A stretch of 64,000 nt of DNA from Nemertoderma westbladi (GCA_032718475.1 JAUCBJ010003385.1:43825-107824); one strand, 5' to 3'. Shown: positions 33,919-64,000, counted from the stretch's first letter. Numbers and translations are program-made. The notes: a model not told the origin generated them from the sequence alone.

Positions 33919-34026
33919 CCCTCTCAGCTGTATCAGCGACATCGGATATCGAGCGTTGGATATGTCGACGCCGACGTTGTCTAGCTTGTCGGCTACCGTC
34001 TGGTGGTTCGTAATGAGTGAGTTCGT
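33883..34026 (-). CDS. Probable downstream exon of the SH3YL1-like gene (linker region); reading frame and 5' boundary uncertain
   Basis: Acceptor atccttatatacag| precedes 34026 and donor GAAG|GTTAGT follows 33883 (same hexamer as the donor at 59378). It is 144 nt with two open frames (DELTHYEPPDGSRQARQRRRRHIQRSISD... or TNSLITNHQ...VAMK) and could extend to ~34135. No homology recognised, so the assignment is positional. Confidence 0.5.
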
Positions 34027-34867
34027 CTGTATATAAGGATAGTACATACCGTGTAGTACATCTAGGAGCGCTCAGCTCAATGCTACCTAACTGGGATCTA
34101 ACTGGACGGAATTCTAAACTAGCTGACGACCGTAGCTTTGCAGTCATGGCATATTAGATAGTCTCTTAATCCAGTAGTCCATTCTGTGAGCGAATCCAAT
34201 TCACTGCACTACCCAGCGGAAAATGGGGAAAGTGGCCTTTTACCAATTATAGTTGGCTAGGTGACATTAGCAATATAATGTCACCTAACAACCAACAAAG
34301 GCAATATACATTGCCAGCCACAAGTAGAGATGAGAGGCTACAAGCCATCTCAGGGGGACAAAGGGGGCTAGGCTAGCACGTGTGCATGAGGGAACAGGGA
34401 GTGCCAAGAGAAGGGAGGATAGATAGCCAATGATGGGGCAGCACACCATATGATTGGGATGCATCCATTGGCCAGGTCACATAACAAGTACCAATATTCT
34501 ATGTGTTAGTAATATAACCGTTGCATTTATTACCTGTTGTTCAGTTGGTTTGTGTAGAGCTGTGGAAGCGAGACGGTTTCAACCGTCGTCGACAGTAACC
34601 GTGCTATTATTATATTCTGCTTGTACTATTATTGTATTCTGACATTACGAAAAACTGCCACTAAAAACTCAGTTATTTTATCGGCCTCCGGCCTTTCAGA
34701 CTCAGGTACTACAAGCCGTTCAGCAGCCAGTGGACGCGGGGACGCGTATTAACCAAAAGCAAACACACACCGGTCGGGATTCCCTCGCCAACTCGGGGAT
34801 CCCGTCACACATTCAACTGTAATGGCTGTTTCTTAGCCGCCTTGAAGTCCTCGTTAGTTAACAGCTG

Positions 34868-35028
34868 CAGCCCATGACGTTCTTGAGCGTTGAACGTGTC
34901 TTAAAAGGACACTGGCCTTGAAGATGCGGATGATCTAGCAAATGTCATGGGTGATAGGGAATTGTGGCGGCAATTTTGTCGACAAGCCGGCACAGCATTC
35001 TTAATGTATGTAATATAATGCAGCTGCT
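34868..35028 (+). mobile_element. Short 3' fragment of the RTE-like LINE family found at 57990-59148
   Basis: aaggacactggccttgaagatgcggatgatctagcaaatgtcatgg...cgacaagccgg is nearly identical to ~58975-59110. Confidence 0.85.
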
Positions 35029-35190
35029 ACAAACCGGCGCTTTATCTTTGACTTACCTCGAAACCGGTTCCCAAAATTCCTCACCGACATCTAAAAAATA
35101 TAATAATAACTTTTAATAAAATGCTGATATAAAGGAGCTCTCCAAAGGAGAACAACAGTAAGGAAGTTGGTTAACTTGTCAGAAGTTAAA

Positions 35191-35269
35191 TAAACCAATA
35201 TAGTATTACGGTAGTATAGGATTACACATAAACCAGTATAGTATTACGGTAGTATAGGATTACACATAA
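35191..35269. repeat. 38-bp tandem duplication (2 copies)
   Basis: taaacca(a/g)tatagtattacggtagtataggattacaca occurs twice in a row. Confidence 0.9.
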
Positions 35270-35432
35270 GCAGTTTTTGCGGTGTGAGTGAAATACGTAA
35301 TTCTATGTAGTTAAAAAGTTTATTCTGTATTATTTGAATAACCGTCAGATTTAACAACTCGTGTTATCTTTGTATTACTGTATTTGTATTTCTATTTTTT
35401 TTTATTCCATTCTTATTTTAATTTATATTCTT

Positions 35433-36085
35433 TACAAAATTAAGGCAGCATTATTAAAACGAGTTTTAGGCGTCCACAAGAGCTCGAAAAATCGGTTGGT
35501 CTTCGCTCTGTGCCAGGAAACCCACTTGGCCAAAGAACTACAATCGAATAGCAATTTTCCTGCGACCGATGAATTCAAAAAATACATCGGCACAATCGAA
35601 GAAAAACACAGAGAGATCAACTGGGACTTCTAGACCGCCCCTGGATTTATAAAGAGGAACTGGACCGAGCCAAGATCTCAATCCAGACACGTAATCGCAC
35701 GCTTCTCGATTCACGGCTTTCACCATCTGGTCTGCCAATCTAATGTTTTCCACGATATTTCCCCAGATTGCCGTTGCAAGTTGTGCGGTGGAGCCGCTCC
35801 TCTTCTACACTTGCTGGATTGTCCAGGAAATTCGCGCAGCCTTACTGAGTTAGCAACCAAGATCAATCCTCAGTTGTAACGTAACCAAGGAATTCTAAAT
35901 TTTCGTGCTTTTTAATACTTTTTACATAACTATTTATTTGTCTATATTTTAACCTTTTACTGCCCAGTTGTTGATTAAGTGCCGCTTCCCTGGCTTGTTA
36001 ATTAAAATATATATGCATTTATATTCTTTGTATTTAGCCTTGTTATCTTAATTAACAATTTAAGAATTGTTAAATTAATTAAGTC
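35433..36085 (+). mobile_element. 5'-truncated, degenerate LINE 3' end, related to the adjacent element
   Basis: Translates KIKAALLKRVLGVHKSSKNRLVFALC...WDF*...RHVIARFSIHGFHHLVC...CKLCGGAAPLLHLLDCP, matching KIQAAFLKRVLSVHKSSRNRLVDALC...RFALHGFHFRIC...CSLCGRPADTYHLLSCP at 38530-38930. AT-rich tail follows. Confidence 0.85.
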
Positions 36086-36089
36086 GCCC

Positions 36090-39000
36090 CCCGATTCTCA
36101 GTATCAGACTGCGTGACAATCTGATCACGCTAGGGACAAACACAGGGAAAATGCAGCCAATAAAGCACCGCCACAACAATCGTTTTCCTCAGTTTTCTGG
36201 AATATCGAAGGACTTAAAACTGTATATAATCTTTCTCATAGGGAAGCTTTATTCGAAAATGAGATTCTACAGTTTGTAGAAACGATGACAACAAAATCTT
36301 TCAATCTACCTGGCTTTTATACCTATGAGTCTCTAGCTTCGCGCCAGAGTGGGAGAGGAAGACCAGTGGGTGGAATAAAACGGTCGCAGTAAACCCTAAA
36401 TTACAGCCGAAACTTGTCTGTTCAAACAGTTCACATGTTATAGTTTCAACGACGGAGGCTATATTTGTATGTTGTTATTTTCAACCTCAGCTATCACTAG
36501 AGGATTTTATAGAGGGAGTCCTCGACATGTTAGACAATATTCCTACTGACTTTTCCAAGTTAATCGCTATCTCCGGAGACTTTAACGCGAGATTAGACAT
36601 CGAGGATAATGCTGGCCAACGCGTTGGAGGAATTGATGGAAGATTTTGGTTTGATGTTACAAACGGATCCTTCCAAACCAACGTATATATGCCACAATGG
36701 ATCTAGTGTCATAGATGTAGCGTATTCCAATAAAGGAGTTAACAACGTGAAGTACTGTCCCAACCCACTGCGCAAACATATTCCACTTGTTTGTACATGG
36801 ACACTTCAGACACCCCCATCGACAGACAACAGACCCCTACACAAGAAGCGGAAACGAGAAATCAATCTGTCTACACTACAGAATGATTCACGGCTCGTCG
36901 ATGTCAACCATTTATTGGATGCAAATAATATAGACGACGCCTATGATCTACTGGCAGAGTCAATAAAAGACGCGGCCCCCCAAAAAAACCCCTGGAACCG
37001 TACATCGAAACACTGGTTCGACGCGGAATGTTTTGTTAAAAGGAAGGAGGTTCTGGAACTCAACGCCGCCGCCCAATTTGATAGTTCCTTGCGGGAAAAT
37101 CTCTGTGCCAAAAAACGCGAATACAAAGCACTTCTGAAGGACAAAGAGAAGAGTGCAGCAGTTCGAAATGAAGAAAGGCTAATTGCCGACGCAGAAAAAC
37201 AGGCGTACAAATGGTGCAAGAAACAAAGAGGATCTGCTGGATGCCCTGTCGATTTAGCTACTTGGGAGGATCATTTCTCAAAGCTCCTCTACGACGATAA
37301 TGCTGAGGCTGAAATCTCTGCAGCGATCGATGAGTGTACTTCCTCAGCAATAAACTCTCCTCCACTAGACGACGACGTTCAGGAATTTTCGGACACAGAA
37401 GTCGCATCGGCAATCAACAGTAAATCAGCTAACAAATCGGGGGGTCCAGATAAACTCTTCTACGAACTCATAAAAGGAGCGCTCCCAGCAACATTAGTTC
37501 TATGGACTTTATTATTCAACATTTGTTTGTCCACCGGTTCACTCGTAAAATCATGGAAAGAAAGTTTGTTGATTGTTCTATACAAAGGAAAAGGATTAAT
37601 CGTAGATCCAAACAACTATAGAGGGATTTCTCTTTTATGTAACGCGTACAAAATCTTTACGAGTTTAATCGAAAAGCGACTCCGAGGTCTCGTTTCCAAA
37701 AGAATACCCCCCGAACAGTACGGCTTCAGTCCCGGGAAATCTACCTCAATGCCTCTAAGTCAGTTTATTAATAAAATTCATAGCAATTTGTCATACCCTC
37801 GAAAACCATTGTACGCGGTTTATGTCGACTTCCGCAAAGCTTTTGATTCGGTCCCCAGGTCTAAACTACTCTTAAAGTTATGGTTTGATTTTAATATTCG
37901 TGGTTCACTTTTTAACATCATTAAATCGATTTTAAGTCCTAATTATATAGTAATTTCAGATGGCCTCCGTAATTCTAGAATTATAAAACAAGTGCGTGGG
38001 GTTTTACAAGGAGACAGCTTGAGCCCTTTCGTAATTTTTATTTACGATATTGTGAAGTTTATACGTGATATTACCGTCAAGATTGGGGAATTATTTATAT
38101 TATTATTTGCGGATGATTTGCTATTTTATGGCGACTCCCGTGAGGTAGTGCAAGCTGGTCTAAATGCAACTCCTAATTGGGCCCGGGAAAACGGTCTTGA
38201 AGTAAATCTTACAAAGACTTCCGTAATGAAATTTAGGAGAGGTGGCCGACTGTCCGCTCAGGATTAATTTTTCTACAACGGAAACGAGGTGAAAATAGAA
38301 AAGTCTTATAAATATTTGGGAGTCACATTTCAATCGTCCTTGAAATTCACAAAGCACATAAATATAATAGTCTGCAAATCACTTTCCACAATACGGTCAA
38401 TCCAGAAACCACATCTACTATCTATTAGCACAGCTAAAAAGCTTTTTTCCTTAAAAGTAACACCGATAGTTATGTATGGACTTCGCGAAATTTGGCCTTT
38501 CTTGTCAGTCAACAACCTTCATAGTATCGATAAAATCCAAGCTGCTTTCCTCAAAAGAGTACTTTCAGTTCACAAATCGTCTAGGAATCGGCTAGTTGAC
38601 GCTCTCTGTGATTCGCGAAATCTTTCTATGGTACTTAAAGGTCAACTAAATTTAACAGACACGGATGTATTCAAAAAATACACCGCTGAAGTCGAAGACA
38701 AAACTCGTGAAATCCCAGTAGAGTTCTGGAACAGTATCGCGTTCATAAATCGCAGTTGGACAATCGCAAATTGTCGTAAGAGGCACACCATAACCCGCTT
38801 TGCTCTTCACGGTTTCCATTTCCGAATTTGTACATCCAGACCCACAGAATTTCATGAGGCGGGGAATGACTGTGTATGTAGTCTCTGCGGGAGGCCGGCG
38901 GACACGTACCATCTCCTTAGTTGCCCGAGCAACCACCACCCCCTTACGTACTGTACTGGGCCAACAAACTCTGATTTAAAATTGTTTTATAACTGTGTAA

Positions 39001-39125
39001 ATATTTTATTATTTATGTATAGTATATTTGGATTTTACTGCTTGCTTGCTTAATGCTTATATAGTTTTACAATCGTACCATTATTTTGGTCTAATAAATA
39101 ACAATAGGCACAAATTAATTAAGTA
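36090..39125 (+). mobile_element. Non-LTR retrotransposon (APE endonuclease + reverse transcriptase + C-terminal CCHC knuckle), inactivated
   Basis: APE motifs FWNIEG, FVET, GRGRPVGG, GDFNAR, SVID. RT motifs NYRGISLL, QYGF, DFRKAFDSV, QGDSLSP, LFADD, YKYLG. C-terminal CSLC-x7-H-x3-C. Ends approximate. Confidence 0.92.
36190..39053 (+). pseudogene. Disrupted LINE ORF2 (APE-RT)
   Basis: Frameshifts near 36380 and 36610 in the endonuclease. An in-frame TAA at 38265-38267 separates ORFs 36609-38267 and 38289-39053, which are in the same frame. Confidence 0.88.
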
Positions 39126-39205
39126 CGCCCATAACTTACTTATATAAATATAGCTCATGTTATTAATATAAGAATAATATTCACGCTCAGAATTAAATAA
39201 AAAAT

Positions 39206-42200
39206 CTATAGAAACTAACCCGCAACCTATAGAAACTCACCCGCCACCTATAGAAACTCACCATCAACCTATAGAAACTCACCCGCAACCTATAGAAACT
39301 CACCATCAACCTATAGAAACTCACCCGCAACCTATAGAAACTCACCCGCAACCTATAGAAACTCACCCGCAACCTATAGAAACTCACCGCAACCTATAGA
39401 AACTCACCCGCAACCTATAGAAACTCACCCGCAACCTATAGAAACTCACCCGCAACCTATAGAAACTCACCCGCAACCTATAGAAACTCACCCGCAACCT
39501 ATAGAAACTCACCCGCAACCTATAGAAACTCACCCGCAACCTATAGAAACTCACCCGCAACCTATAGAAACTCACCGCAACCTATAGAAACTCACCCACA
39601 ACCTATAGAAACTCACCCGCCACCTATAGAAACTCACCATCAACCTATAGAAACTCACCCGCAACCTATAGAAACTCACCATCAACCTATAGACACTCAC
39701 CCGCAACCTATAGAAACTCATCCGCAACCTATAGAAACTCACCGCAACCTATAGAAACTCACCCGCAACCTATAGAAACTCACCCGCAACCTATAGAAAC
39801 TCACCCGCAACCTATAGAAACTCACCCGCAACCTATAGAAACTCACCCGCAACCTATAGAAACTCACCCGCAACCTATAGAAACTCACCCGCAACCTATA
39901 GAAACTCACCCGCAACCTATAGAAACTCACCGCAACCTATAGAAACTCACCGCAACCTATAGAAACTCACCCGCAACCTATAGAAACTCACCCGCAACCT
40001 ATAGAAACTCACCGCAACCTATAGAAACTCACCCGCAACCTATAGAAACTCACCGCAACCTATAGAAACTCACCCACAACCTATAGAAACTCACCCGCAA
40101 CCTATAGAAACTCACCGCAACCTATAGAAACTCACCGCAACCTATAGAAACTCACCCACAACCTATAGAAACTCACCATCAACGTATAGAAACTCACCCG
40201 CAACCTATAGAAACTCACCCGCAACCTATAGAAACTCACCCGCAACCTATAGAAACTCACCCGCAACCTATAGAAACTCACCGCAACCTATAGAAACTCA
40301 CCCACAACCTATAGAAACTCACCCGCAACCTATAGAAACTCACCCGCAACCTATAGAAACTCACCCGCAACCTATAGAAACTCACCGCAACCTATAGAAA
40401 CTCACCCGCAACCTATAGAAACTCACCCGCAACCTATAGACACTCACCCGCAACCTATAGAAACTCACCCGCAACCTATAGAAACTCACCCGCAACCTAT
40501 AGAAACTCACCCGCAACCTATAGAAACTCACCCGCAACCTATAGACACTCACCCGCAACCTATAGAAACTCACCCGCAACCTATAGAAACTCACCCGCAC
40601 GTATAGAAACTCACCCGCAACATATAGAAACTCACCCGCAACCTATAGAAACTCACCCACAACCTATAGAAACTCACCCGCAACCTATAGAAACTCACCC
40701 GCAACCTATAGAAACTCACCCGCAACCTATAGAAGCTCACCCGCAACCTATAGAAGCTCACCCGCAACCTATAGACACTCACCCGCAACCTATAGAAACT
40801 CATCCGCAACCTATAGAAACTCACCCGCAACCTATAGAAACTCACCCGCACGTATAGAAACTCACCCGCAACCTATAGAAACTCACCCGCAACCTATAGA
40901 CACTCACCCGCAACCTATAGATACTCACCCGCAACCTATAGAAACTCACCCGCAACCTATAGAAACTCACCCGCACGTATAGAAACTCACCCGCAACATA
41001 TAGAAACTCACCCGCAACCTATAGACACTCACCCGCAACCTATAGAAACTCATCCGCAACCTATAGAAACTCAACCGCAACCTATAGAAACTCACCCGCA
41101 ACCTATAGAAACTCACACGCAACCTATAGAAACTAACCCGCAACCTATAGAAACTAACCCGCAACCTATAGAAACTCACCGCAACCTATAGAAACTCACC
41201 ATCAACCTATAGAAACTCACCCGCAACCTATAGAAACTCACCCGCAACCTATAGAAACTCACCCGCAACCTATAGACACTCACCCGCAACCTATAGAAAC
41301 TCACCCGCAACCTATAGAAACTCACCCGCAACCTATAGAAACTCACCCGCAACCTATAGAAACTCACCCGCAACCTATAGAAACTCACCGCAACCTATAG
41401 AAACTCACCCGCAACCTATAGAAACTCATCCGCAACCTATAGAAACTCACCCGCAACCTATAGAAACTCACCGCAACCTATAGAAACTCACCATCAACCT
41501 ATAGAAACTCACCCGCAACCTATAGAAACTCACCCGCAACCTATAGAAACTCACCCGCAACCTATAGACACTCACCCGCAACCTATAGAAACTCATCCGC
41601 AACCTATAGAAACTCAACCGCAACCTATAGAAACTCACCCGCAACCTATAGAAACTCACCATCAACCTATAGAAACTCACCCGCAACCTATAGAAACTCA
41701 CCCGCAACCTATAGAAACTCACCCGCAACCTATAGACACTCACCCGCAACCTATAGAAACTCATCCGCAACCTATAGAAACTCAACCGCAACCTATAGAA
41801 ACTCACCCGCAACCTATAGAAACTCACACGCAACCTATAGAAACTAACCCGCAACCTATAGAAACTAACCCGCAACCTATAGAAACTCACCGCAACCTAT
41901 AGAAACTCACCCGCAACCTATAGAAACTCACCCGCAACCTATAGACACTCACCCGCAACCTATAGAAACTCATCCGCAACCTATAGAAACTCAACCGCAA
42001 CCTATAGAAACTCACACGCAACCTATAGAAACTCACCCGCAACCTATAGAAACTCACCCGCAACCTATAGACACTCACCCGCAACCTATAGAAACTCATC
42101 CGCAACCTATAGAAACTCACCCGCAACCTATAGAAACTCACCCGCAACCTATAGACACTCACCCGCAACCTATAGAAACTCATCCGCAACCTATAGAAAC

Positions 42201-45200
42201 TCAACCGCAACCTATAGAAACTCACCCGCAACCTATAGAAACTCACACGCAACCTATAGAAACTCACCCACAACCTATAGAAACTAACCCGCAACCTATA
42301 GAAACTAACCCGCAACCTATAGAAACTCACCCGCAACCTATAGAAACTAACCCGCAACCTATAGAAACTCACCCACAACCTATAGAAACTCACCCGCAAC
42401 CTATAGAAACTCACACGCAACCTATAGAAACTCACCCACAACCTATAGAAACTAACCCGCAACCTATAGAAACTAACCCGCAACCTATAGAAACTCACCG
42501 CAACCTATAGAAACTCACCATCAACCTATAGAAACTCACCCGCAACCTATAGAAACTCACCCGCAACCTATAGACACTCACCCGCAACCTATAGAAACTC
42601 ATCCGCAACCTATAGAAACTCAACCGCAACCTATAGAAACTCACCCGCAACCTATAGAAACTCACACGCAACCTATAGAAACTCACCCACAACCTATAGA
42701 AACTAACCCGCAACCTATAGAAACTAACCCGCAACCTATAGAAACTCACCCGCAACCTATAGAAACTCACCCGCAACCTATAGAAACTAACCCGCAACCT
42801 ATAGAAACTCACCCGCAACCTATAGACACTCACCCGCAACCTATAGAAACTCACCCGCAACCTATAGAAACTCACCCGCAACCTATAGAAACTCACCCGC
42901 AACCTATAGAAACTCATCCGCAACCTATAGAAACTCAACCGCAACCTATAGAAACTCACCCGCAACCTATAGAAACTCACACGCAACCTATAGAAACTCA
43001 CCCACAACCTATAGAAACTAACCCGCAACCTATAGAAACTAACCCGCAACCTATAGAAACTCACCCGCAACCTATAGAAACTCACCCGCAACCTATAGAA
43101 ACTAACCCGCAACCTATAGAAACTCACCCGCAACCTATAGACACTCACCCGCAACCTATAGAAACTCACCCGCAACCTATAGAAACTAACCCGCAACCTA
43201 TAGAAACTAACCCGCAACCTATAGAAACTAACCCGCAACCTATAGAAACTAACCGCAACCTATAGACACTCACCCGCAACCTATAGAAACTCACCCGCAA
43301 CCTATAGAAACTCACCCGCAACCTATAGACACTCACCCGCAACCTATAGAAACTCACCCGCAACCTATAGAAACTAACCCGCAACCTATAGAAACTAACC
43401 CGCAACCTATAGAAACTAACCCGCAACCTATAGAAACTCACCCGCAACCTATAGAAACTCACCATCAACCTATAGAAACTCACCCGCAACCTATAGAAAC
43501 TCACCCGCAACCTATAGAAACTCACCCGCAACCTATAGACACTCACCCGCAACCTATAGAAACTCACCCGCAACCTATAGAAACTCACCCGCAACCTATA
43601 GAAACTAACCCGCAACCTATAGAAACTAACCCGCAACCTATAGAAACTCAACCGCAACCTATAGAAACTCACCCGCAACCTATAGAAACTCACACGCAAC
43701 CTATAGAAACTCACCCACAACCTATAGAAACTAACCCGCAACCTATAGAAACTAACCCGCAACCTATAGAAACTAACCCGCAACCTATAGACACTCACCC
43801 GCAACCTATAGAAACTCATCCGCAACCTATAGAAACTCAACCGCAACCTATAGAAACTCACCCGCAACCTATAGAAACTCACACGCAACCTATAGAAACT
43901 CACCCACAACCTATAGAAACTAACCCGCAACCTATAGAAACTAACCCACAACCTATAGAAACTCACCCACAACCTATAGAAACTAACCCGCAACCTATAG
44001 AAACTAACCCGCAACCTATAGAAACTCACCCGCAACCTATAGAAACTCACCCGCAACCTATAGAAACTCACACGCAACCTATAGAAACTCACCGCAACCT
44101 ATAGAAACTCACCCGCAACCTATAGAAACTCACCCGCAACCTATAGAAACTAACCGCAACCTATAGAAACTCACCGCAACCTATAGAAACTCACCATCAA
44201 CCTATAGAAACTCACCGCAACCTATAGAAACTCACCATCAACCTATAGAAACTCACCCGCAACCTATAGAAACTCACCCGCAACCTATAGAAACTCACCC
44301 GCAACCTATAGAAACTCACCGCAACCTATAGAAACTCACCCACAACCTATAGAAACTCAACCGCAACCTATAGAAACTCACCATCAACCTATAGAAACTC
44401 ACCGCAACCTATAGAAACTCACCCACAACCTATAGAAACTCATCCGCAACCTATAGAAACTAACCCGCAACCTATAGAAACTAACCCGCAACCTATAGAA
44501 ACTCAACCGCAACCTATAGAAACTCACCCGCAACCTATAGAAACTCACACGCAACCTATAGAAACTCACCCACAACCTATAGAAACTAACCCGCAACCTA
44601 TAGAAACTAACCCGCAACCTATAGAAACTCACCCGCAACCTATAGACACTCACCCGCAACCTATAGAAACTCATCCGCAACCTATAGAAACTCAACCGCA
44701 ACCTATAGAAACTCACCCGCAACCTATAGAAACTCACACGCAACCTATAGAAACTCACCCACAACCTATAGAAACTAACCCGCAACCTATAGAAACTAAC
44801 CCACAACCTATAGAAACTCACCCACAACCTATAGAAACTAACCCGCAACCTATAGAAACTAACCCGCAACCTATAGAAACTCACCGCAACCTATAGAAAC
44901 TCACCATCAACCTATAGAAACTCACCGCAACCTATAGAAACTCACCATCAACCTATAGAAACTCACCCGCAACCTATAGAAACTCACCCGCAACCTATAG
45001 AAACTCACCCGCAACCTATAGACACTCACCCGCAACCTATAGAAACTCATCCGCAACCTATAGAAACTAACCCGCAACCTATAGAAACTAACCCGCAACC
45101 TATAGAAACTCAACCGCAACCTATAGAAACTCACCCGCAACCTATAGAAACTCACACGCAACCTATAGAAACTCACCCACAACCTATAGAAACTAACCCG

Positions 45201-48200
45201 CAACCTATAGAAACTAACCCGCAACCTATAGAAACTCACCCGCAACCTATAGACACTCACCCGCAACCTATAGAAACTCATCCGCAACCTATAGAAACTC
45301 AACCGCAACCTATAGAAACTCACCCGCAACCTATAGAAACTCACACGCAACCTATAGAAACTCACCCACAACCTATAGAAACTAACCCGCAACCTATAGA
45401 AACTAACCCACAACCTATAGAAACTCATCCGCAACCTATAGAAACTAACCCGCAACCTATAGAAACTAACCCGCAACCTATAGAAACTCAACCGCAACCT
45501 ATAGAAACTCACCCGCAACCTATAGAAACTCACACGCAACCTATAGAAACTCACCCACAACCTATAGAAACTAACCCGCAACCTATAGAAACTAACCCGC
45601 AACCTATAGAAACTCACCCGCAACCTATAGACACTCACCCGCAACCTATAGAAACTCATCCGCAACCTATAGAAACTCAACCGCAACCTATAGAAACTCA
45701 CCCGCAACCTATAGAAACTCACACGCAACCTATAGAAACTCACCCACAACCTATAGAAACTAACCCGCAACCTATAGAAACTAACCCACAACCTATAGAA
45801 ACTCACCCACAACCTATAGAAACTAACCCGCAACCTATAGAAACTAACCCGCAACCTATAGAAACTCACCGCAACCTATAGAAACTCACCATCAACCTAT
45901 AGAAACTCACCGCAACCTATAGAAACTCACCATCAACCTATAGAAACTCACCCGCAACCTATAGAAACTCACCCGCAACCTATAGAAACTCACCCGCAAC
46001 CTATAGACACTCACCCGCAACCTATAGAAACTCATCCGCAACCTATAGAAACTAACCCGCAACCTATAGAAACTCACCCGCAACCTATAGAAACTCACCA
46101 TCAACCTATAGAAACTCACCCGCAACCTATAGAAACTCACCCACAACCTATAGAAACTCACCCGCAACCTATAGACACTCACCCGCAACCTATAGAAACT
46201 CACCCGCAACCTATAGAAACTCACCCGCAACCTATAGAAACTAACCCGCAACCTATAGAAACTAACCCGCAACCTATAGAAACTCAACCGCAACCTATAG
46301 AAACTCACCCGCAACCTATAGAAACTCACACGCAACCTATAGAAACTCACCCACAACCTATAGAAACTAACCCGCAACCTATAGAAACTAACCCGCAACC
46401 TATAGAAACTAACCCGCAACCTATAGACACTCACCCGCAACCTATAGAAACTCATCCGCAACCTATAGAAACTCAACCGCAACCTATAGAAACTCACCCG
46501 CAACCTATAGAAACTCACACGCAACCTATAGAAACTCACCCACAACCTATAGAAACTAACCCGCAACCTATAGAAACTAACCCACAACCTATAGAAACTC
46601 ACCCACAACCTATAGAAACTAACCCGCAACCTATAGAAACTAACCCGCAACCTATAGAAACTCACCCGCAACCTATAGAAACTCACCCGCAACCTATAGA
46701 AACTCACACGCAACCTATAGAAACTCACCGCAACCTATAGAAACTCACCCGCAACCTATAGAAACTCACCCGCAACCTATAGAAACTAACCGCAACCTAT
46801 AGAAACTCACCGCAACCTATAGAAACTCACCATCAACCTATAGAAACTCACCGCAACCTATAGAAACTCACCATCAACCTATAGAAACTCACCCGCAACC
46901 TATAGAAACTCACCCGCAACCTATAGAAACTCACCCGCAACCTATAGAAACTCACCGCAACCTATAGAAACTCACCCACAACCTATAGAAACTCAACCGC
47001 AACCTATAGAAACTCACCATCAACCTATAGAAACTCACCGCAACCTATAGAAACTCACCCACAACCTATAGAAACTCATCCGCAACCTATAGAAACTAAC
47101 CCGCAACCTATAGAAACTAACCCGCAACCTATAGAAACTCAACCGCAACCTATAGAAACTCACCCGCAACCTATAGAAACTCACACGCAACCTATAGAAA
47201 CTCACCCACAACCTATAGAAACTAACCCGCAACCTATAGAAACTAACCCGCAACCTATAGAAACTCACCCGCAACCTATAGACACTCACCCGCAACCTAT
47301 AGAAACTCATCCGCAACCTATAGAAACTCAACCGCAACCTATAGAAACTCACCCGCAACCTATAGAAACTCACACGCAACCTATAGAAACTCACCCACAA
47401 CCTATAGAAACTAACCCGCAACCTATAGAAACTAACCCACAACCTATAGAAACTCACCCACAACCTATAGAAACTAACCCGCAACCTATAGAAACTAACC
47501 CGCAACCTATAGAAACTCACCGCAACCTATAGAAACTCACCATCAACCTATAGAAACTCACCGCAACCTATAGAAACTCACCATCAACCTATAGAAACTC
47601 ACCCGCAACCTATAGAAACTCACCCGCAACCTATAGAAACTCACCCGCAACCTATAGACACTCACCCGCAACCTATAGAAACTCATCCGCAACCTATAGA
47701 AACTAACCCGCAACCTATAGAAACTAACCCGCAACCTATAGAAACTCAACCGCAACCTATAGAAACTCACCCGCAACCTATAGAAACTCACACGCAACCT
47801 ATAGAAACTCACCCACAACCTATAGAAACTAACCCGCAACCTATAGAAACTAACCCGCAACCTATAGAAACTCACCCGCAACCTATAGACACTCACCCGC
47901 AACCTATAGAAACTCATCCGCAACCTATAGAAACTCAACCGCAACCTATAGAAACTCACCCGCAACCTATAGAAACTCACACGCAACCTATAGAAACTCA
48001 CCCACAACCTATAGAAACTAACCCGCAACCTATAGAAACTAACCCACAACCTATAGAAACTCATCCGCAACCTATAGAAACTAACCCGCAACCTATAGAA
48101 ACTAACCCGCAACCTATAGAAACTCAACCGCAACCTATAGAAACTCACCCGCAACCTATAGAAACTCACACGCAACCTATAGAAACTCACCCACAACCTA

Positions 48201-49150
48201 TAGAAACTAACCCGCAACCTATAGAAACTAACCCGCAACCTATAGAAACTCACCCGCAACCTATAGACACTCACCCGCAACCTATAGAAACTCATCCGCA
48301 ACCTATAGAAACTCAACCGCAACCTATAGAAACTCACCCGCAACCTATAGAAACTCACACGCAACCTATAGAAACTCACCCACAACCTATAGAAACTAAC
48401 CCGCAACCTATAGAAACTAACCCACAACCTATAGAAACTCACCCACAACCTATAGAAACTAACCCGCAACCTATAGAAACTAACCCGCAACCTATAGAAA
48501 CTCACCGCAACCTATAGAAACTCACCATCAACCTATAGAAACTCACCGCAACCTATAGAAACTCACCATCAACCTATAGAAACTCACCCGCAACCTATAG
48601 AAACTCACCCGCAACCTATAGAAACTCACCCGCAACCTATAGACACTCACCCGCAACCTATAGAAACTCATCCGCAACCTATAGAAACTCAACCGCAACC
48701 TATAGAAACTCACCCGCAATCTATAGAAACTCACACGCAACCTATAGAAACTAACCCGCAACCTATAGAAACTAACCCGCAACCTATAGAAACTCACCGC
48801 AACCTATAGAAACTCACCATCAACCTATAGAAACTCACCCGCAACCTATAGAAACTCACCCGCAACCTATAGAAACTCACCCGCAACCTATAGACACTCA
48901 CCCGCAACCTATAGAAACTCACCCGCAACCTATAGAAACTCACCCGCAACCTATAGAAACTCACCCGCAACCTATAGAAACTCACCCGCAACCTATAGAA
49001 ACTCACCGCAACCTATAGAAACTCACCCGCAACCTATAGAAACTCACCCGCAACCTATAGAAACTCACCCGCAACCTATAGAAACTCACCCGCAACCTAT
49101 AGAAACTCACCCGCCACCTATAGACACTCACCCGCAACCTATAGAAACTC
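39206..49150. repeat. 21-bp tandem array (~475 copies) derived from the 3' end and donor site of SH3YL1 exon 49318-49132
   Basis: Unit ctatagaaactcacccgcaac, minus strand GAGTTTCTATAGGTTGCGG|GT. It continues directly from exon codons GGG AGT TTC TAT AGG. Occasional 20-bp units. Confidence 0.99.
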
Positions 49151-49318
49151 CCGTTTCTCTCCCTGTTGATGGCGGCGGCCTTCAACGACCGTCGTATTTT
49201 GCTATTCTGGGCGTTGCATATAAGATCGGAGAGAAGTCCGCACAGTTCGTTACACTCCACTGGCCGAGCTACTTCCCCAGAAAGTAACTGTTTGGCTCGA
49301 ACAGCCGTAGAATAAAAC
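49132..49318 (-). CDS. SH3YL1: SH3YL1-like exon (end of SYLF domain, start of linker)
   Basis: Acceptor gttcgcggtag| in phase 2 gives (R)FYSTAVRAKQLLSGEVARPVECNELCGLL, matching the family pattern KFY...RA.DIL.G...RP.....LY..L. The donor is most likely CGG|GTGAGT after 49132; alternative AG|GTTGCG after 49139. Confidence 0.8.
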
Positions 49319-49434: not shown

Positions 49435-49579
49435 CTGTGATTGGTGGATTTTCGCTCATAGAATAGGGCGCCCTCTATAGACACTCCGACGAATAATCCC
49501 TTACTTTTGCTGTACGTGAATATGGCGCTGGGTGGGTTGCGAACTGCTAAATCACCTTCGGCACTCCTCCCAACGGGAC
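49435..49579 (-). CDS. SH3YL1: SH3YL1-like exon (SYLF domain)
   Basis: ttttacctccctag|GT CCC... encodes GPVGRSAEGDLAVRNPPSAIFTYSKSKGLFVGVSIEGALFYERKSTNHR and ends AG|gtgggc. 145 nt, phase 1 to 2, followed by a 116-nt intron. Confidence 0.92.
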
Positions 49580-49960: not shown

Positions 49961-50285
49961 CCCAAATAGAACGTATTGGTGGGAAATTCAAATTGTCTAA
50001 GGAATTATCAATCCATTCAAGTAGGCCAATTAATTGCCGGGGCGGTAGGCCTATCAGCCTCTTCCTAATTTTCAATAATTGTCTATTTTCAATCCATTAA
50101 ACCCCAAATCAGTAGACATATTAGGATACAACGGCTGGGATTATAACTGTATAACTAGCCTTAATGAGGTAAATGTTATACCAGCGCATCAATCGTGGAG
50201 TTTATGAACTCTGTTTACGGTTTATTGTCCGTTGTTAAGGGATACTGGAGGACTGGGTTCTGGTATATAAATAAATAAATAAAAT

Positions 50286-51788
50286 ATGTACGTTGCTAAA
50301 CACCGACTACGGTGTAGTAACTGGGGATATCAGAGATACTGTACGTCCACGTCGAATGGTATCAATGGAAACACGAACTCAGCAAAACCGATGGCGAAAT
50401 TAAAACAACTGAAATCGCGCCCACCGCCCCCTCCAAGAACAGACGAGACACCTCTAGCGGGGGGAAGGGAACTCAACCCACGGGCGAGGGAACGCGCGGT
50501 CCCGGCCTCCCAACTGTCGCGACTCAGCCACTTCGCGTCGTTAGGGGGCGGCCTCGCGTGGGGGTCGCTAAGCAACGCGGCGAGTCGAGTGTTGGCGGGG
50601 CAACGACTGGACACAACGCTAGTGCTGAACGAGGCCAACGTTCGTCGGATAGTCGATACTCTGTGCGCCGTTAGAGGCGCGGCGCTCAAGATGGGACAGA
50701 TGCTGAGCATCCAGGACAACACGCTAGTGAGTGCGGAGCTGAGAGCGGCGTTCGAACGAGTGCGACAAAACGCAGATTACATGCCGCTACGACAACTAGA
50801 GGGCGTGATGCGCGGGGAGTTAGGGGAGAGTTGGAGGGAGAGATTCGGAAGGTTTGAGAACGTTCCGTTCGCGGCCGCGTCCATCGGGCAGGTTCACCGG
50901 GCGACCTCGACCGCAGGGGAACCCCTCGCGGTGAAGGTTCAGTACCCGGGGGTGGCTCGCAGTATCGACAGCGATCTGTGGAACCTGGGGAACCTGGTGG
51001 CGCCGTTCCTGCCCCGGGGATTGTACGTGGATCGGGTGATGGAAGTGGCGCGCGCCGAGTTGGTCTGGGAGACCGACTACCTGCGGGAGGCGGCGATGCA
51101 ACGCCGGATGGGCGAACTCCTCCGCGACGATCCCTTCCTCGCGGTGCCGCGGGTTCGGGACGAACTCTCCACGCGACTCCTCCTCACCTCGGAGCTCGCC
51201 GTCGGCGTCCCTTTGGACGCGACCACGGGACTCGATCAACCCACGCGCGATTGGCTCGCGGAGACCGTCTTACGTCTGTGTCTCCGGGAGCTGTTTGAGT
51301 TTCGAGTGATGCAGACCGATCCGAACTGGTCCAACTTCCTCTTCGACTCGGAGGCTCATCGGATCGTCCTCCTGGACTTCGGAGCGACTCGGGAGTTCGA
51401 GGAATCGTTCGTCGCCGACTACTTCCGGCTAATAAACGCCGCAGTTCATAGAGATTCCGATAAAGTGGTGGAGTATTCTAGAACTCTGGGTTTCCTAACG
51501 GGCTACGAGTCGTCAACTATGACAGAGACTCACGTCCAGGCTATAATGATACTGGGAGAGGCCTTCTCTCTGGAAGACCGCTTTGATTTCGGAGCGCAGT
51601 CCACAAGTAAACGAATTCTCTCTCTGGTACCCCGCATGGTAGAAGGCAGACTAACCCCGCCACCCAGGGAAACCTACTCTCTGCACAGGAAGATGAGTGG
51701 TGCCTTTATGCTTTGTACGCAAGTGAGAGCCAATATAAACTGCTCCACTATGTGGAAAGAATTAACAGCTAATTACAATGAAACGTAG
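50286..51788 (+). CDS. COQ8: Atypical kinase COQ8/ADCK3-4 (UbiB/ABC1 family), 500 aa, intronless, nested antisense in an SH3YL1 intron
   Basis: ARERAVP, VRGAALKMGQ (KxGQ), A-rich loop PFAAASIGQVH, AVKVQYPGV, MQTDPNWSNF, LLDFGA, PPPRETYSLHRKMSG. Basic N-terminus compatible with a mitochondrial presequence. Confidence 0.96.
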   Translation: MYVAKHRLRCSNWGYQRYCTSTSNGINGNTNSAKPMAKLKQLKSRPPPPPRTDETPLAGGRELNPRARERAVPASQLSRLSHFASLGGGLAWGSLSNAASRVLAGQRLDTTLVLNEANVRRIVDTLCAVRGAALKMGQMLSIQDNTLVSAELRAAFERVRQNADYMPLRQLEGVMRGELGESWRERFGRFENVPFAAASIGQVHRATSTAGEPLAVKVQYPGVARSIDSDLWNLGNLVAPFLPRGLYVDRVMEVARAELVWETDYLREAAMQRRMGELLRDDPFLAVPRVRDELSTRLLLTSELAVGVPLDATTGLDQPTRDWLAETVLRLCLRELFEFRVMQTDPNWSNFLFDSEAHRIVLLDFGATREFEESFVADYFRLINAAVHRDSDKVVEYSRTLGFLTGYESSTMTETHVQAIMILGEAFSLEDRFDFGAQSTSKRILSLVPRMVEGRLTPPPRETYSLHRKMSGAFMLCTQVRANINCSTMWKELTANYNET

Positions 51789-53640: not shown

Positions 53641-53844
53641 TTAAATTAATATAATAATACCAATAATATTACTGTCTCTGTACAGTATCCAAAGAAACTG
53701 CTATGATGAGTTCCTTTGCTTAAGAGTTTAATTATTTATTTGTTTTCCAACAATTGTTCTAGAATATTCATTAATTCTGTGAGATTATACGTGCTGGATA
53801 TCAATTACGTGTTATCAGTTCGTAGATTAAACACAACAGTGAAG

Positions 53845-54841
53845 ATGTTTCTTTTGAAAAATGCAACTGAGATTCTGGAGATTCTGTCCCAATATTTTCA
53901 CTTGTCAGTGGAATTTGTAATTGCCTTAATATTAGTCTACGTGGTAGGAACGTGGCTGAGAATAAACTGTAAGGAACGCATTGGAGGAACGCAGGAACAG
54001 GCAACTCAAACTCCATTCGAATCGACGAGATTGCATTGCGAATACAAAACAAATAGTGTCAACGGGGACACAGAGAGACAAAGAATATGCAATAATTGTG
54101 ACAATGGGGACACAGAAAGACAAAGAATATCCAATAATGGTGACACAGACAGTGATGAATGGGACGCTGAGACTGTACCAGCAATGGGTGATGACACCCA
54201 AAAGGAGACGATCAATAGGTACTACTGTGTTTTGGGCACACCCCTACCTACACCCCCCAGAAGTTTGTTTTTAAATAGCTAGTTTTAGTTACTTTTTTTT
54301 ATGTTCTACAACATATTGACTACTCATTTTTTTTATTAATTTTGTTCTCGAACAAAATTAATTAATTCGGTTTTTTTGTTGTTAGCAAAGCAAAATGTTC
54401 TAGAACATATCATCTATTCATTTTTGTAAAAAGTAATGTTCTAGAACAAATAGTGTTGTTCTAGAACATTTTAAAAAACTTGTTTTTTGTGACGTGTTTT
54501 TCCGGCTAGTGTTAAAAACAATTACTAACAACTAACTGTACAAATTTTCATTGTAGCTAGTGATTTTTATTAAATATGTGATACAAAGATAACATTTCAA
54601 AATAACAATTTCAAGATAACATCAAAATTTTTATATTAAATGAATAGATAATATGCTCTAGAAGAACTTTGTTTTTAAAAAGTAACAAAAACTAGCTAGT
54701 ATAAAAAATTTGAGGGGGGGGGGGGGGGGGGTGGGGTGGGGGGGTGTGCCCAAAACACAGTAGTACCGGTACCCGATCAATTTAAGGGCGAGGGGTAAGG
54801 TACCAATTGGGGAGGATCAGGTTACTGCCACATTAGTATGA
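53845..54841 (+). pseudogene. Possible small single-TM orphan ORF interrupted by a MITE
   Basis: ATG at 53845, hydrophobic FVIALILVYVVGTWL, QATQT, NGDTERQRI repeats. The frame resumes after the insertion (INLRARGKVPIGEDQVTATLV*, TGA 54839-54841). No homology recognised. Confidence 0.35.
54218..54767. mobile_element. MITE-like element with ~80-100 bp terminal inverted repeats
   Basis: ggtactactgtgttttgggcacacccc... mirrors ...ggggtgtgcccaaaacacagtagtacc, and the symmetry continues through tagctagtttt/aaaactagcta. cgatcaat lies on both flanks. Confidence 0.8.
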
Positions 54842-56445: not shown

Positions 56446-56766
56446 GAGAGTATAGTTCTGGGGGGCACTTAAATAAGTCGTCAGACTTTGCGCGTAATCC
56501 CTGGCCTAACGACCAAATTTTAAACTTCATTTTTAAAAAATGTATCTCGTTTTAGTCGTTTCTGCGAGCGATAATTTTTTAAACTTGATTTGTGCCCAAA
56601 ATTCAAAAGTCAAAACCACACATTAAGCCTACGCCAACCGATATCCGTACAGACATGTCTCCTAAATTTTTCCTGAGTAAAAGTACATCTACTCCTCTGG
56701 TACTAAAAATACCATGGGGTGTACGAGGATCATACTAATGCCTTTATTGCTATGAGAGAGCTTCGG

Positions 56767-57150
56767 GAACCAATCAGAGACGATCACCTTATGGGAGATT
56801 GGTAGGGAATCAATCGCAGATTATCAACTTATGGGAGATGGGTAAGGAACAAATCAGTGACGATCAACTTATGGGAGATGGGTAAGGAACCAATCAGAGC
56901 CGATTAACTTATGGGAGATGGGTAAGGAACCAATCAGAGCCGATTAACTTATGGGAGATGGGTAAGGAACCTATCAGAGCCGATTAACTTATGGGAGATG
57001 GGTAAGGAACCTATCAGAGCCGATTAACTTATGGGAGATGGGTAAGGAACCAATCAGAGCCGATTAACTTATGGGAGATGGGTAAGGAACTATCAGAGAC
57101 GACCAACATATTGTACATAGTAGGGAACCAATCAGTGACGATCAACTTAT
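56767..57150. repeat. 40-bp minisatellite, ~9 copies, degenerate at both ends
   Basis: Unit atgggagatgggtaaggaaccaatcagagccgattaactt. Confidence 0.93.
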
Positions 57151-57989: not shown

Positions 57990-59148
57990 TTTGCTGACTT
58001 CTTCAAGACCTTTGATTCAGTCTCTCGCTCACGTATGTTCAGCATACTTTCATTATGGGATTCCTGATGAAATTATTGCAGCAATAAGATCAGTATACGA
58101 TGGTTCGACAACATTTGTGTCTACTGTTGACGGTGACACATAACCATTTGAAGTGTTATGGGGCATCCTCCAGGGAGACACACTTGCACCATTCTTGTTC
58201 ATAATTGTGGTTGACTATGTTCTACGCATGTCCTTAGATCATCATAATGATGATGGGGTGATGATAACTCCACCTACTGGCTCCAGAAGTCGAGGAAATC
58301 CTGCCAAGTACCTAACTGATCTAGACTTGGCTGATGACTTAGGAGTACTCTCAGAATCATTAGAGGGAGCCCAACGGCTCCTCAGCTCATTAGAACATGC
58401 TGCTTATAGTGTTGGTCTTTTTATTAACTCCAGAAAGACCAAAATTTTGACAGTTAACTTTGAAAGTTCTCAGCAAGTCTCTGATCGGATGAGCATAAGC
58501 TCAAAGGATGGTATGCTTGAGCATGTGGACGACTTCTGTTACCTGGGATCATGGATCCGGAAGTCAGGTGAGGACCTTCGAATACGTAAGGGAAAGGCAT
58601 GGGCAGCCTTGAATAGGCTTTCCAGGATTTGGAAGTCACCGAGAATTAATCGGAAACTTAAGGTCCGATTATTTAGAGCAGCAGTAGTTCCAGTACTCCT
58701 CTATGGGAGTACATGCTGGGCTCTAACTGCTGAGGACACCAAATCTCTGGATGGCACATTCACAAGAATGCTACGCCGGGTTCATTGTGTCAAGTACAAT
58801 GCACACATCTCCAACCAGACACTATATAACATTGGAGGTGTCTCATTGGTTCCCCCAAGCTTGACACTAGAACAAAATCGCCTCCGCTTTGCAGGACATT
58901 GCTTTCGCCATGAGGACCAGCCAGTGCATAATCTTGTACTTTGGCAGCCTCATGGAGTGAATAAGCATGGTGGACAGCCCATGACTTTCTTGAGACGCAT
59001 CTTAAAGGACACTGGCCTTGAAGATGCGGATGATCTAGCAAATGTCATGGCTGATAGGGAGTTGTGGCTGCGCAATCGACAAGCCGGTACAACATTCTTA
59101 AAAATGCAGCTGCAATGCAGCATACCGATCCTAGTAGTAGTAGTAGTA
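57990..59148 (+). mobile_element. 5'-truncated RTE-like non-LTR retrotransposon (RT remnant)
   Basis: DFFKTFDSV, GILQGDTLAPFLF, DLADDL, DFCYLGS, VLLYGSTCW, RLRFAGHCFR. Disrupted upstream of 58153; ends in a (TAG)n tail at 59132-59148. Confidence 0.9.
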
Positions 59149-59378
59149 CATTATTTATGTAAACTTATACAAAATTATGTCTACTTTCTTTTATTTGTAT
59201 TTACTTTAATTACGCCAACTTTAATTATGTTTACTTTATTAGAATGTACTTTATTTACGTCTACTTTATGCGATGTAATTATTTCAGCAGTGCATTCCAT
59301 TATCCACTCTATTTAATGTTACACATAATTCGTTAACATATGAATACTGAGGGATTGGATAATGGATGTAAGACTAAC

Positions 59379-59543
59379 CTGCAGCTATTGTTAGGTTCCC
59401 ACCAACAGTAAAGTTACCCCCCATAGAGAAAGCGTCAACAGCTGCCTGATTGTTGAGAATGATGACGAACTGAGTGAGTTCCAGTCCGACTTCCAATCCA
59501 CCACCGACACCAAATATACCAACAGCCGACGGTGCAGACCATT
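59379..59543 (-). CDS. SH3YL1: SH3YL1-like exon (SYLF domain)
   Basis: ttttgccttttag|AA TGG TCT... encodes WSAPSAVGIFGVGGGLEVGLELTQFVIILNNQAAVDAFSMGGNFTVGGNLTIAAG and ends GCAG|gttagt. 165 nt, phase 1-1. Confidence 0.93.
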
Positions 59544-62500
59544 CTAAAAGGCAAAAATATACCAACAGCTGACGGTGCAGACCATTCTATAAGGTAAAAA
59601 TATACCAACAGCCGACGGTGCAGACCATTCTATAAGGCAAAAATATACCAACAGCCGACGGTGCAGACCATTCTATAAGGTAAAAATATACCAACAGCCG
59701 ACGGTGTAGACCATTCTATAAGGCAAAAATATACCAACAGCCGACGGTGCAGACCATTCTATAAGGCAAAAATATACCAACAGCCGACGGTGCAGACCAT
59801 TCTATAAGGCAAAAATATACCAACAGCCGACGGTGCAGACCATTCTATAAGGTAAAAATGTACCAACAGCTGACGGTGGAGACCATTCTATAAGGTAAAA
59901 ATATACCAACGGGCCGACGGTGCAGACCATTCTATAAGGTAAAAATATACCAACAGCCGACGGTGGAGACCATTCTATAAGGTAAAAATATACCAACGGG
60001 CCGACGGTACAGACCATTCTATAAGGTAAAAATATACCAACAGCCGACGGTGCAGACCATTCTATAAGGTAAAAATATACCAACAGCCGACGGTGGAGAC
60101 CATTCTATAAGGTAAAAATATACCAACAGCCGACGGTGCAGACCATTCTATAAGGTAAAAATATACCAACAGCCGACGGTGGAGACCATTCTATAAGGTA
60201 AAAATATACCAACGGGCCGACGGTGCAGACCATTCTATAAGGTAAAAATATACCAACAGCCGACGGTGCAGACCATTCTATAAGGTAAAAATATACCAAC
60301 GGGCCGACGGTGCAGACCATTCTATAAGGTAAAAATATACCAACAGCCGACGGTGCAGACCATTCTATAAGGTAAAAATATACCAACAGCCGACGGTGGA
60401 GACCATTCTATAAGGTAAAAATATACCAACAGCCGACGGTGCAGACCATTCTATAAGGTAAAAATATACCAACAGCCGACGGTGGAGACCATTCTATAAG
60501 GTAAAAATATACCAACGGGCCGACGGTGCAGACCATTCTATAAGGTAAAAATATACCAACAGCCGACGGTGCAGACCATTCTATAAGGTAAAAATATACC
60601 AACGGGCCGACGGTGCAGACCATTCTATAAGGTAAAAATATACCAACAGCCGACGGTGGAGACCATTCTATAAGGTAAAAATATACCAACAGCCGACGGT
60701 GCAGACCATTCTAAAAGGCAAAAATATACCAACAGCTGACGGTGCAGACCATTCTATAAGGTAAAAATATACCAACAGCCGACGGTGCAGACCATTCTAT
60801 AAGGTAAAAATATACCAACAGCCGACGGTGCAGACCATTCTATAAGGTAAAAATATACCAACAGCCGACGGTGGAGACCATTCTATAAGGTAAAAATATA
60901 CCAACGGGCCGACGGTGCAGACCATTCTATAAGGTAAAAATATACCAACAGCCGACGGTGCAGACCATTCTATAAGGTAAAAATATACCAACAGCCGACG
61001 GTGCAGACCATTCTATAAGGTAAAAATATACCAACAGCCGACGGTGCAGACCATTCTATAAGGTAAAAATATACCAACAGCCGACGGTGCAGTGGTGCAG
61101 ACCATTCTATAAGGTAAAAATATACCAACAGCCGACGGTGCAGACCATTCTATAAGGCAAAAATATACCAACAGCCGACGGTGCAGACCATTCTATAAGG
61201 CAAAAATATACCAACAGCCGACGGTGCAGACCATTCTATAAGGTAAAAATATACCAACAGCCGACGGTGCAGACCATTCTATAAGGTAAAAATATACCAA
61301 CGGCCGACGGTGCAGACCATTCTATAAGGTAAAAATATACCAACAGCCGACGGTGGAGACCATTCTATAAGGTAAAAATATACCAACGGGCCGACGGTGC
61401 AGACCATTCTATAAGGTAAAAATATACCAACAGCCGACGGTGCAGACCATTCTATAAGGTAAAAATATACCAACAGCCGACGGTGCAGACCATTCTATAA
61501 GGTAAAAATATACCAACAGCCGACGGTGCAGACCATTCTATAAGGTAAAAATATACCAACAGCCGACGGTGGAGACCATTCTATAAGGTAAAAATATACC
61601 AACAGGCCGACGGTGCAGACCATTCTATAAGGTAAAAATATACCAACAGCCGACGGTGCAGACCATTCTATAAGGTAAAAATATACCAACAGCCGACGGT
61701 GCAGACCATTCTATAAGGTAAAAATATACCAACAGCCGACGGTGCAGACCATTCTATAAGGTAAAAATATACCAACAGCCGACGGTGCAGACCATTCTAT
61801 AAGGTAAAAATATACCAACAGCCGACGGTGCAGACCATTCTATAAGGTAAAAATATACCAACAGCCGACGGTGCAGACCATTCTATAAGGTAAAAATATA
61901 CCAACGCCGACGGTGCAGACCATTCTATAAGGTAAAAATATACCAACAGCCGACGGTGCAGACCATTCTATAAGGCAAAAATATACCAACAGCCGACGGT
62001 GCAGACCATTCTATAAGGTAAAAATATACCAACAGCCGACGGTGCAGACCATTCTATAAGGTAAAAATATACCAACAGCCGACGGTGCAGACCATTCTAT
62101 AAGGCAAAAATATACCAACAGCCGACGGTGCAGACCATTCTATAAGGTAAAAATATACCAACAGCCGACGGTGCAGACCATTCTATAAGGTAAAAATATA
62201 CCAACAGCCGACGGTGCAGACCATTCTATAAGGTAAAAATATACCAACAGCCGACGGTGCAGACCATTCTATAAGGTAAAAATATACCAACAGCCGACGG
62301 TGCAGACCATTCTATAAGGTAAAAATATACCAACAGCCGACGGTGCAGACCATTCTATAAGGTAAAAATATACCAACAGCCGACGGTGCAGACCATTCTA
62401 TAAGGTAAAAATATACCAACAGCCGACGGTGCAGACCATTCTATAAGGTAAAAATATACCAACAGCCGACGGTGCGTGTGCAGACCATTCTATAAGGTAA

Positions 62501-64000
62501 AAATATACCAACAGCCGACGGTGCAGACCATTCTATAAGGTAAAAATATACCAACGGCCGACGGTGCAGACCATTCTATAAGGTAAAAATATACCAACAG
62601 CCGACGGTGCAGACCATTCTATAAGGTAAAAATATACCAACAGCCGACGGTGCAGACCATTCTATAAGGTAAAAATATACCAACAGCCGACGGTGCAGAC
62701 CATTCTATAAGGTAAAAATATACCAACAGCCGACGGTGCAGACCATTCTATAAGGTAAAAATATACCAACAGCCGACGGTGCAGACCATTCTATAAGGTA
62801 AAAATATACCAACAGCCGACGGTGCAGACCATTCTATAAGGTAAAAATATACCAACAGCCGACGGTGCAGACCATTCTATAAGGTAAAAATATACCAACA
62901 GCCGACGGTGCAGACCATTCTATAAGGTAAAAATATACCAACAGCCGACGGTGCAGACCATTCTATAAGGCAAAAATATACCAACAGCCGACGGTGCAGA
63001 CCATTCTATAAGGTAAAAATATACCAACAGCCGACGGTGCAGACCATTCTATAAGGTAAAAATATACCAACAGCCGACGGTGCAGACCATTCTATAAGGT
63101 AAAAATATACCAACAGCCGACGGTGCAGACCATTCTATAAGGCAAAAATATACCAACAGCCGACGGTGCAGACCATTCTATAAGGCAAAAATATACCAAC
63201 AGCCGACGGTGCAGACCATTCTATAAGGTAAAAATATACCAACAGCCGACGGTGCAGACCATTCTATAAGGTAAAAATATACCAACAGCCGACGGTGCAG
63301 ACCATTCTATAAGGTAAAAATATACCAACAGCCGACGGTGCAGACCATTCTATAAGGTAAAAATATACCAACAGCCGACGGTGCAGACCATTCTATAAGG
63401 TAAAAATATACCAACAGCCGACGGTGCAGACCATTCTATAAGGTAAAAATATACCAACAGCCGACGGTGCAGACCATTCTATAAGGCAAAAATATACCAA
63501 CAGCCGACGGTGCAGACCATTCTATAAGGCAAAAATATACCAACAGCCGACGGTGCAGACCATTCTATAAGGCAAAAATATACCAACAGCCGACGGTGCA
63601 GACCATTCTATAAGGTAAAAATATACCAACAGCCGACGGTGCAGACCATTCTATAAGGTAAAAATATACCAACAGCCGACGGTGGCAGACCATTCTATAA
63701 GGCAAAAATATACCAACAGCCGACGGTGCAGACCATTCTATAAGGCAAAAATATACCAACAGCCGACGGTGCAGACCATTCTATAAGGTAAAAATATACC
63801 AACAGCCGACGGTGCAGACCATTCTATAAGGTAAAAATATACCAACAGCCGACGGTGCAGACCATTCTATAAGGCAAAAATATACCAACAGCCGACGGTG
63901 CAGACCATTCTATAAGGTAAAAATATACCAACAGCCGACGGTGCGAGACCATTCTATAAGGTAAAAATATACCAACAGCCGACGGTGCAGACCATTCTAT
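59512..64000. repeat. 43-bp tandem array (~104 copies, runs off the right edge) derived from the acceptor and first ~32 nt of exon 59543-59379
   Basis: Unit aatataccaacagccgacggtgcagaccattctataaggtaaa, minus strand TTACCTTATAG|AATGGTCTGCACCGTCGGCTGTTGGTATATTT. The terminal copy is the real exon start. Confidence 0.99.

Follow-up and report, generated by a model that had tools for sequence, protein, structure and literature searches.

On the minus strand of the window analysed here, a stretch of 64,000 nucleotides from Nemertoderma westbladi, a conserved exon of an SH3YL1-like gene is preceded by a tandem array of 103 complete units of about 43 nt, located at 59544-64000 (-). The array is best explained as a young and tolerated minisatellite derived from the gene's own junction between intron end and exon start, in which the splice site adjacent to the exon is chosen by its position; a probability of about 0.7 is assigned to this reading. 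The first-pass annotation treated the arrangement as unprecedented, but it belongs to a kind already described under the name of 'mirage' in the accessible part of one report (PMC3087553). Besides this array, the same gene carries one, and probably two, much larger junction arrays.

The host gene and the junction copied by the array

The host gene was recognized by means of the Pfam Ysc84 (SYLF) profile (PF04366), which runs on across three successive minus-strand exons. Exon A (59379-59543, 165 nt, phase 1-1, donor GTTAGT) covers profile positions 2-45 with an E value of 7.8e-11, exon B (49435-49579, 145 nt) covers positions 44-94, and exon C (49132-49318, 187 nt to the first GTGAGT donor) covers positions 94-125 with an E value of 0.017 using Pfam and of 1.4e-6 using a custom profile. 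The best named match for exon A is scallop SH3YL1 (69% over exon A). Upon joining at the canonical GT/AG sites, the three exons are read in frame without a stop, display 61% identity to scallop SH3YL1 over 132 aa and score 223 bits on a profile built from 40 full-length relatives. When the sequence outside the arrays was translated in six frames, giving 803 segments, none of them matched an SH3 domain (best E 2); a C-terminal SH3 exon may sit beyond the left window edge.

The array was delimited by TRF at 59512-64000 with a period of 43, 103.8 copies, 97% matches and a score of 8417, a value far beyond chance; the array is real. It reaches the right window edge at 64000 and is hence open-ended. 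The AG|AATGG site is found 104 times on the minus strand, namely as exon A's own acceptor at 59543 and as 103 copies upstream of it, so that the initial claim of more than 100 decoy 3' splice sites before a conserved exon stands. The consensus unit consists of the first 32 nt of exon A (the head) followed by an 11-nt intron-derived tail ending in AG. The unit was indeed derived from the gene, as had been proposed, and was copied from its intron/exon junction. The same annotation described the acceptors as made of coding sequence, which applies to their upstream context only: the family profile match starts at the W motif, the final 11 nt of the unit with their AG fall outside it, and relatives differ upstream of this motif, where RLPDGS is the commonest sequence (32 of 151). 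The 11-nt tail is therefore intronic and not coding.

The position of this intron may be an old one. Family sequence is lacking upstream in 36 of the 153 motif-bearing matches; seven of these 36 end in E, five of the seven after P, A, T, S or L. Such endings fit gene callers reading through a same-phase YAG acceptor and thereby point, circumstantially, to an old intron position before exon A. The intron-position check was extended to 80 metagenome loci, with 74 found continuous through the motif, four outside the pattern and two without the motif; these loci appear to be mostly intronless prokaryotic genes and uninformative in this respect.

Complete units measure 43 nt in 89 of 103 cases and 44 nt in 11, with one unit each of 42, 49 and 51 nt. 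Those of 43 nt (n=89) show a mean divergence from the consensus of about 1% and are thus about 99% alike, and the exon A head is unchanged in 74 of the 103 units. All 103 complete units end in AG. The tail quoted in the first-pass annotation was said to be offered by every copy, a statement which has to be restricted: the 103 tails are distributed among TTACCTTATAG (84 units), TTGCCTTATAG (17 units) and TTGCCTTTTAG (2 units), and 19 of the 102 fully visible decoy tails deviate from the quoted one. The two TTGCCTTTTAG tails are the real acceptor of exon A, carried by the exon-proximal unit (59544-59586, -), and that of a single further unit (60753-60711, -), in agreement with the recurrence reported near 60711. 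Pairing of this second acceptor with the donor at 59379 would define an exon of 1332 nt. A 21-nt piece of the unit lacks an exact counterpart in metagenome contigs, and no 14-mer of the 43-nt or 21-nt arrays occurs elsewhere in the 64-kb window, both being weak evidence against a dispersed repeat family.

The consequences of decoy use were derived for each acceptor. With each of the 103 upstream acceptors the reading frame runs into a premature stop, located inside the array in 102 cases and inside exon A for the nearest decoy, 56 nt before the exon A donor. The acceptor at 59543 is the only one giving an open product, and an intact protein therefore needs the last acceptor, as was initially stated. 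The unit contains a single donor-like GT, a weak one (TTG|GTATAT), and the decoys thus lack a good donor partner of their own. From the AG to this weak donor, at 59586-59563 (-) and at the equivalent positions of each unit, the distance is 24 nt, and a decoy could serve as an in-frame microexon of eight residues if this donor were used. No signal of selection for or against the decoy AGs was detected: chance would suffice to retain them in all units (P 0.51, taking 14 distinct mutations). With lengths that break the frame in 14 of 103 units and AG retention at chance level, the decoys drift as if neutral.

Donor arrays and other contents of the window

The second array follows exon C, at 39206-49150 (-), and may prove more interesting than the 43-nt array. 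Its 21-nt unit comprises the end of exon C and the donor, and is repeated about 470 times over 9.9 kb (TRF copy number 475.6), with 394 donor-like sites of the form G|GT(G/T)AGT. As the unit length is divisible by three, the five donors next downstream (49111-49027) preserve the reading frame; they are also stop-free and each of them adds seven residues. This in-frame ladder of donors could conceivably yield isoforms with a variable number of seven-residue repeats.

The third array occupies 1-33918 (-), where at least 735 units of 46 nt (TRF copy number 737) extend over at least 33.9 kb and remain open-ended at the window edge. The site GAAG|GTTAGT occurs 703 times. The unit spans the end and donor of a putative exon E, about 20 nt matching exactly and a further stretch loosely. 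Putative exon E (33883-34026, -; 144 nt, AG...GTTAGT, open in two frames) has an exon-like GC content of 0.51, as in exons A-C, and is one of five candidates given by a crude scan of 33870-39200. A putative exon D of 34 nt lies at 35057-35090 (-; AG...GTAAGT, GC 0.50). No homology was found for putative exons D and E with Pfam or with the custom family profile. As a raw count, the palindrome TTCTAGAA of the 46-nt unit also occurs 10 times outside the arrays (15.6 kb), with a cluster of three at 54394-54470.

Taken together, the 43-, 21- and 46-nt arrays account for 76% of the 64-kb window. Under a crude uniform model, a probability of 0.022 is obtained for at least one other array to fall on any of the six supported junctions, a figure conditioned on the 43-nt array having been chosen for its junction. 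Exon E was left out of this calculation because it is partly defined by its own array. This value is a hint, not proof, that junction arrays cluster in this gene region.

The intron separating exons A and B harbours, on the other strand, an intronless and GC-rich ORF for a COQ8/ABC1 atypical kinase (50283-51788, +; Pfam ABC1 E 4e-62). It displays up to 55% identity to animal COQ8; the best 120 matches listed range from 48 to 55% identity and the named ones span several phyla, which points to a source animal without a close annotated relative. Remnants of LINE-like reverse transcriptases are found in introns at 36117-39050 (+) and 58144-59150 (+), with Pfam RVT_1 E values of 2.5e-32 and 1.2e-7, respectively, the former being broken by stops and frameshifts. 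An open frame of 190 codons (53710-54279, +) contains a hydrophobic stretch and a 42-nt two-copy repeat and has no Pfam match. A 40-nt tandem repeat of about 10 copies (56766-57150, +) is tied to no recognised exon, and Rfam gave no match in 33000-64000.

Origin of the array and choice of the acceptor

The origin of the 43-nt array can be outlined as follows. An initial duplication across the junction would have been followed by expansion and turnover through slippage or unequal exchange. The tail types form a one-step series leading from the proximal type to the bulk type (17 tails with one change, two with two changes). On the simplest reading of this unrooted series, the proximal tail would be the original one, still retained, and the bulk tail would be derived from it in two steps; most simply, the original acceptor would have been kept at the edge of the array. 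The spliceosome would then mostly use the one acceptor that adjoins the complete exon with its donor. In the absence of a strong donor within the decoys, pairing across the exon to the GTTAGT donor at 59379 would favour the nearest acceptor, the resulting exon being 165 nt long for the true site against 208, 251, 294 nt and more for successive decoys. Leaky decoy use would be cleared by nonsense-mediated decay. The same tolerance would extend to the donor arrays that follow exon C and putative exon E, with use of the first donor as in human F7. Against this explanation, exons of 208-294 nt, as formed by the nearest decoys, are still of ordinary size, and the branching of acceptor A is left unexplained. 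Branch-like motifs are canonical at exons B and C, at -22/-21 (CTGAC and TTGAT), and acceptor A offers only two candidates, the UnA at -27, which is weak, and the yUnAy at -47.

Choice of the last acceptor by exon definition, as initially suggested, is plausible, and published splicing data speak in part for it. According to the available part of one report, long flanking introns favour the splice sites closest across the exon; on the other side, for human 3' sites between long introns the upstream preference is only reduced, not reversed (PMC9225289). A duplicated beta-globin 3' site followed by an exon of 14, 55 or 205 nt was spliced in vitro exclusively at the downstream site, with very low efficiency; duplicated strong 3' sites also gave poor splicing in vitro, double occupancy lowering it, as stated in the accessible sections of another report (PMC5389562). 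These data are mammalian and would apply to the present animal by analogy.

An alternative which we consider doubtful is that position alone is insufficient and that the proximal unit, held or shaped by selection, marks the right site by means of a branch adenosine at -27 and of a U at -4 that would unfold a hairpin covering the AG. Its tail is present in only two of 103 units, and the unit differs from the bulk consensus by three changes (-27 G>A, -9 A>G, -4 A>T). The proximal acceptor had been described as richer in pyrimidines, which is correct by a single pyrimidine at -15 to -3 (11 against 10 in the bulk decoys); the acceptor of exon C, itself supported by homology, has only eight, so that measured against this gene the bulk decoys are not weak. 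The -27 change supplies the UnA which the bulk units lack between -18 and -46, albeit a weak one, and brings in a further AG as well, 26 nt upstream of the genuine one. In folding predictions, the bulk tail pairs with the unit's own head (-4.9 kcal/mol) and the -4 change opens the AG, and taken alone ranks no lower than 6th, 8th and 15th among the 123 single changes in this respect. The -27 change nevertheless counteracts the -4 change in the predicted folds, and the AG unmasking by the full three-change variant is equalled by 47, 118 and 137 of 250 random triples under three folding settings. The proximal AG ranks only 6th to 39th in accessibility among 101-102 acceptors across six settings, and the folding z-scores of the unit amount to -0.47 to -0.96. 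Hairpin unmasking by the proximal variant was accordingly rejected as setting-dependent and not beyond random variants, and the special help initially expected from this variant is not borne out. Edge units are moreover reported to escape homogenisation anyway (PMC3087553).

The preferred reading of a tolerated array chosen by position has also to be weighed against a weakly selected or failing allele, in which the arrays impair splicing by in-frame skipping of exon A or by decoy use and decay, the loss of SH3YL1 being cheap. The presence of three huge arrays in one gene region and the inefficiency in vitro of duplicated 3' sites (PMC5389562, available part) agree with such an allele. Exon A, with its symmetric 165 nt, can be skipped with conservation of the frame, at the cost of about a third of the Ysc84 domain. 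Whole-body SH3YL1 knockout mice reportedly serve in adult disease models, which also fits a cheap loss. The 497 nt of homology-supported exons nonetheless contain no stop, frameshift or lost splice dinucleotide and keep the conserved family positions; the arrays being young, the exons would not yet bear traces of a recent functional loss. A failing allele is on balance quite improbable. It is far harder to believe that the decoys form a regulatory poison ladder, whose use is coupled to nonsense-mediated decay and whose copy number tunes the level of SH3YL1. The retention of the AG by 103 of 103 decoys, all of them giving premature stops, is what such a ladder would show, but it is equally expected without selection, the array is young at about 1% mean divergence, and a 21-nt piece of the unit has no exact match in metagenome contigs, which is weak evidence on conservation. 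Inflation of a short real duplication into long arrays during assembly is likewise very improbable: several singleton one-base indels could be read errors, yet the recurrent unit variants are regionally patterned, with 15, 18 and 44 unit types in the 43-, 21- and 46-nt arrays, respectively, a pattern not usual from collapse or duplication errors.

Known junction repeats and meaning

Minisatellite-like duplications of intron/exon boundaries were described in lancelet globins (BflGb6 and BflGb9) and Adh3, with an acceptor-side layout included, and appear not to disturb splicing (PMC3087553, available part). PGBD5 and troponin C were subsequently added to these mirages according to the accessible part of a second report (PMC3902484). 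As in the present case, amphioxus mirages are head-to-tail copies across an intron/exon boundary, either the 5' or the 3' boundary being copied (PMC3087553, PMC3902484). In the sections available, BflGb6 is built like the 43-nt array from an intron's 3' end and an exon's 5' portion, and the range of Adh3 units (10-72 bp) includes 43 nt (PMC3087553). The 43-nt array is itself head-to-tail, spans a boundary with the authentic boundary at its end and keeps the AG in 103 of 103 units; it is a mirage. The differences lie in scale and in the type of evidence. The globin and PGBD5 mirages of amphioxus hold 2-7 copies in the accessible accounts, against at least 103, about 470 and at least 735 copies here, in at least 4.5, 9.9 and at least 33.9 kb. 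Normal splicing is backed there by RT-PCR, and for the arrays reported here it is a prediction from the DNA sequence.

Human VNTRs spanning splice junctions were described for F7 IVS7 (37 bp), CBS intron 13, 6-16, lamin B2 and PDGF. In the available part of this report, all are donor-side with 5-25 copies and the first donor is used (first-site scanning), the two nearest pseudo-sites being used as well in 6-16 and CBS (PMC1557585). The 21-nt and 46-nt arrays resemble them, in that their initial monomer lies across the exon/intron boundary and the same splice site recurs from unit to unit. The 43-nt array differs in being acceptor-side, and first-site scanning of the F7 type cannot explain it because its last site must win. 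Duplication also multiplies splice signals in intron gain by tandem duplication, which requires a wholly exonic unit with AG|GT, as given in the accessible parts of two reports (PMC2891723, PMC2812944). Intron gain was rejected for the 43-nt array: with an intronic tail and AG|AA no clean new intron is possible, and the final copy contains no acceptor to match the weak internal donor. The 21-nt unit, unlike the 43-nt unit, does contain a proto-splice site (TATAG|GT, in 468 copies). Introns dominated by tandem repeats are also known in protein-coding genes of the Drosophila Y chromosome. These gigantic introns reach megabase size and consist of simple satellites; they are not known to be copies of splice junctions from the host gene. 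No description of satellite-scale junction arrays, with hundreds of copies, was found in the literature, in which subscription journals were thinly covered and supplements excluded.

A single locus of this type is a known oddity; the scale of the neighbouring donor arrays (about 470 and at least 735 units) is the addition. In the acceptor array, the last of more than 100 near-identical sites must win with the original branch region moved more than 4 kb away, which makes it a ready-made test of exon definition versus scanning. It is a tentative and rather unlikely proposal that a genome-wide process seeds satellites at splice junctions, such that introns grow to tens of kb of their own splice sites and the spliceosome picks one among hundreds of identical donors or acceptors. 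If the clustering were genome-wide, it would indicate a mutational link between splice junctions and the birth of satellites and a route for intron expansion, and this genome would lend itself naturally to tests of the choice of 3' splice sites.
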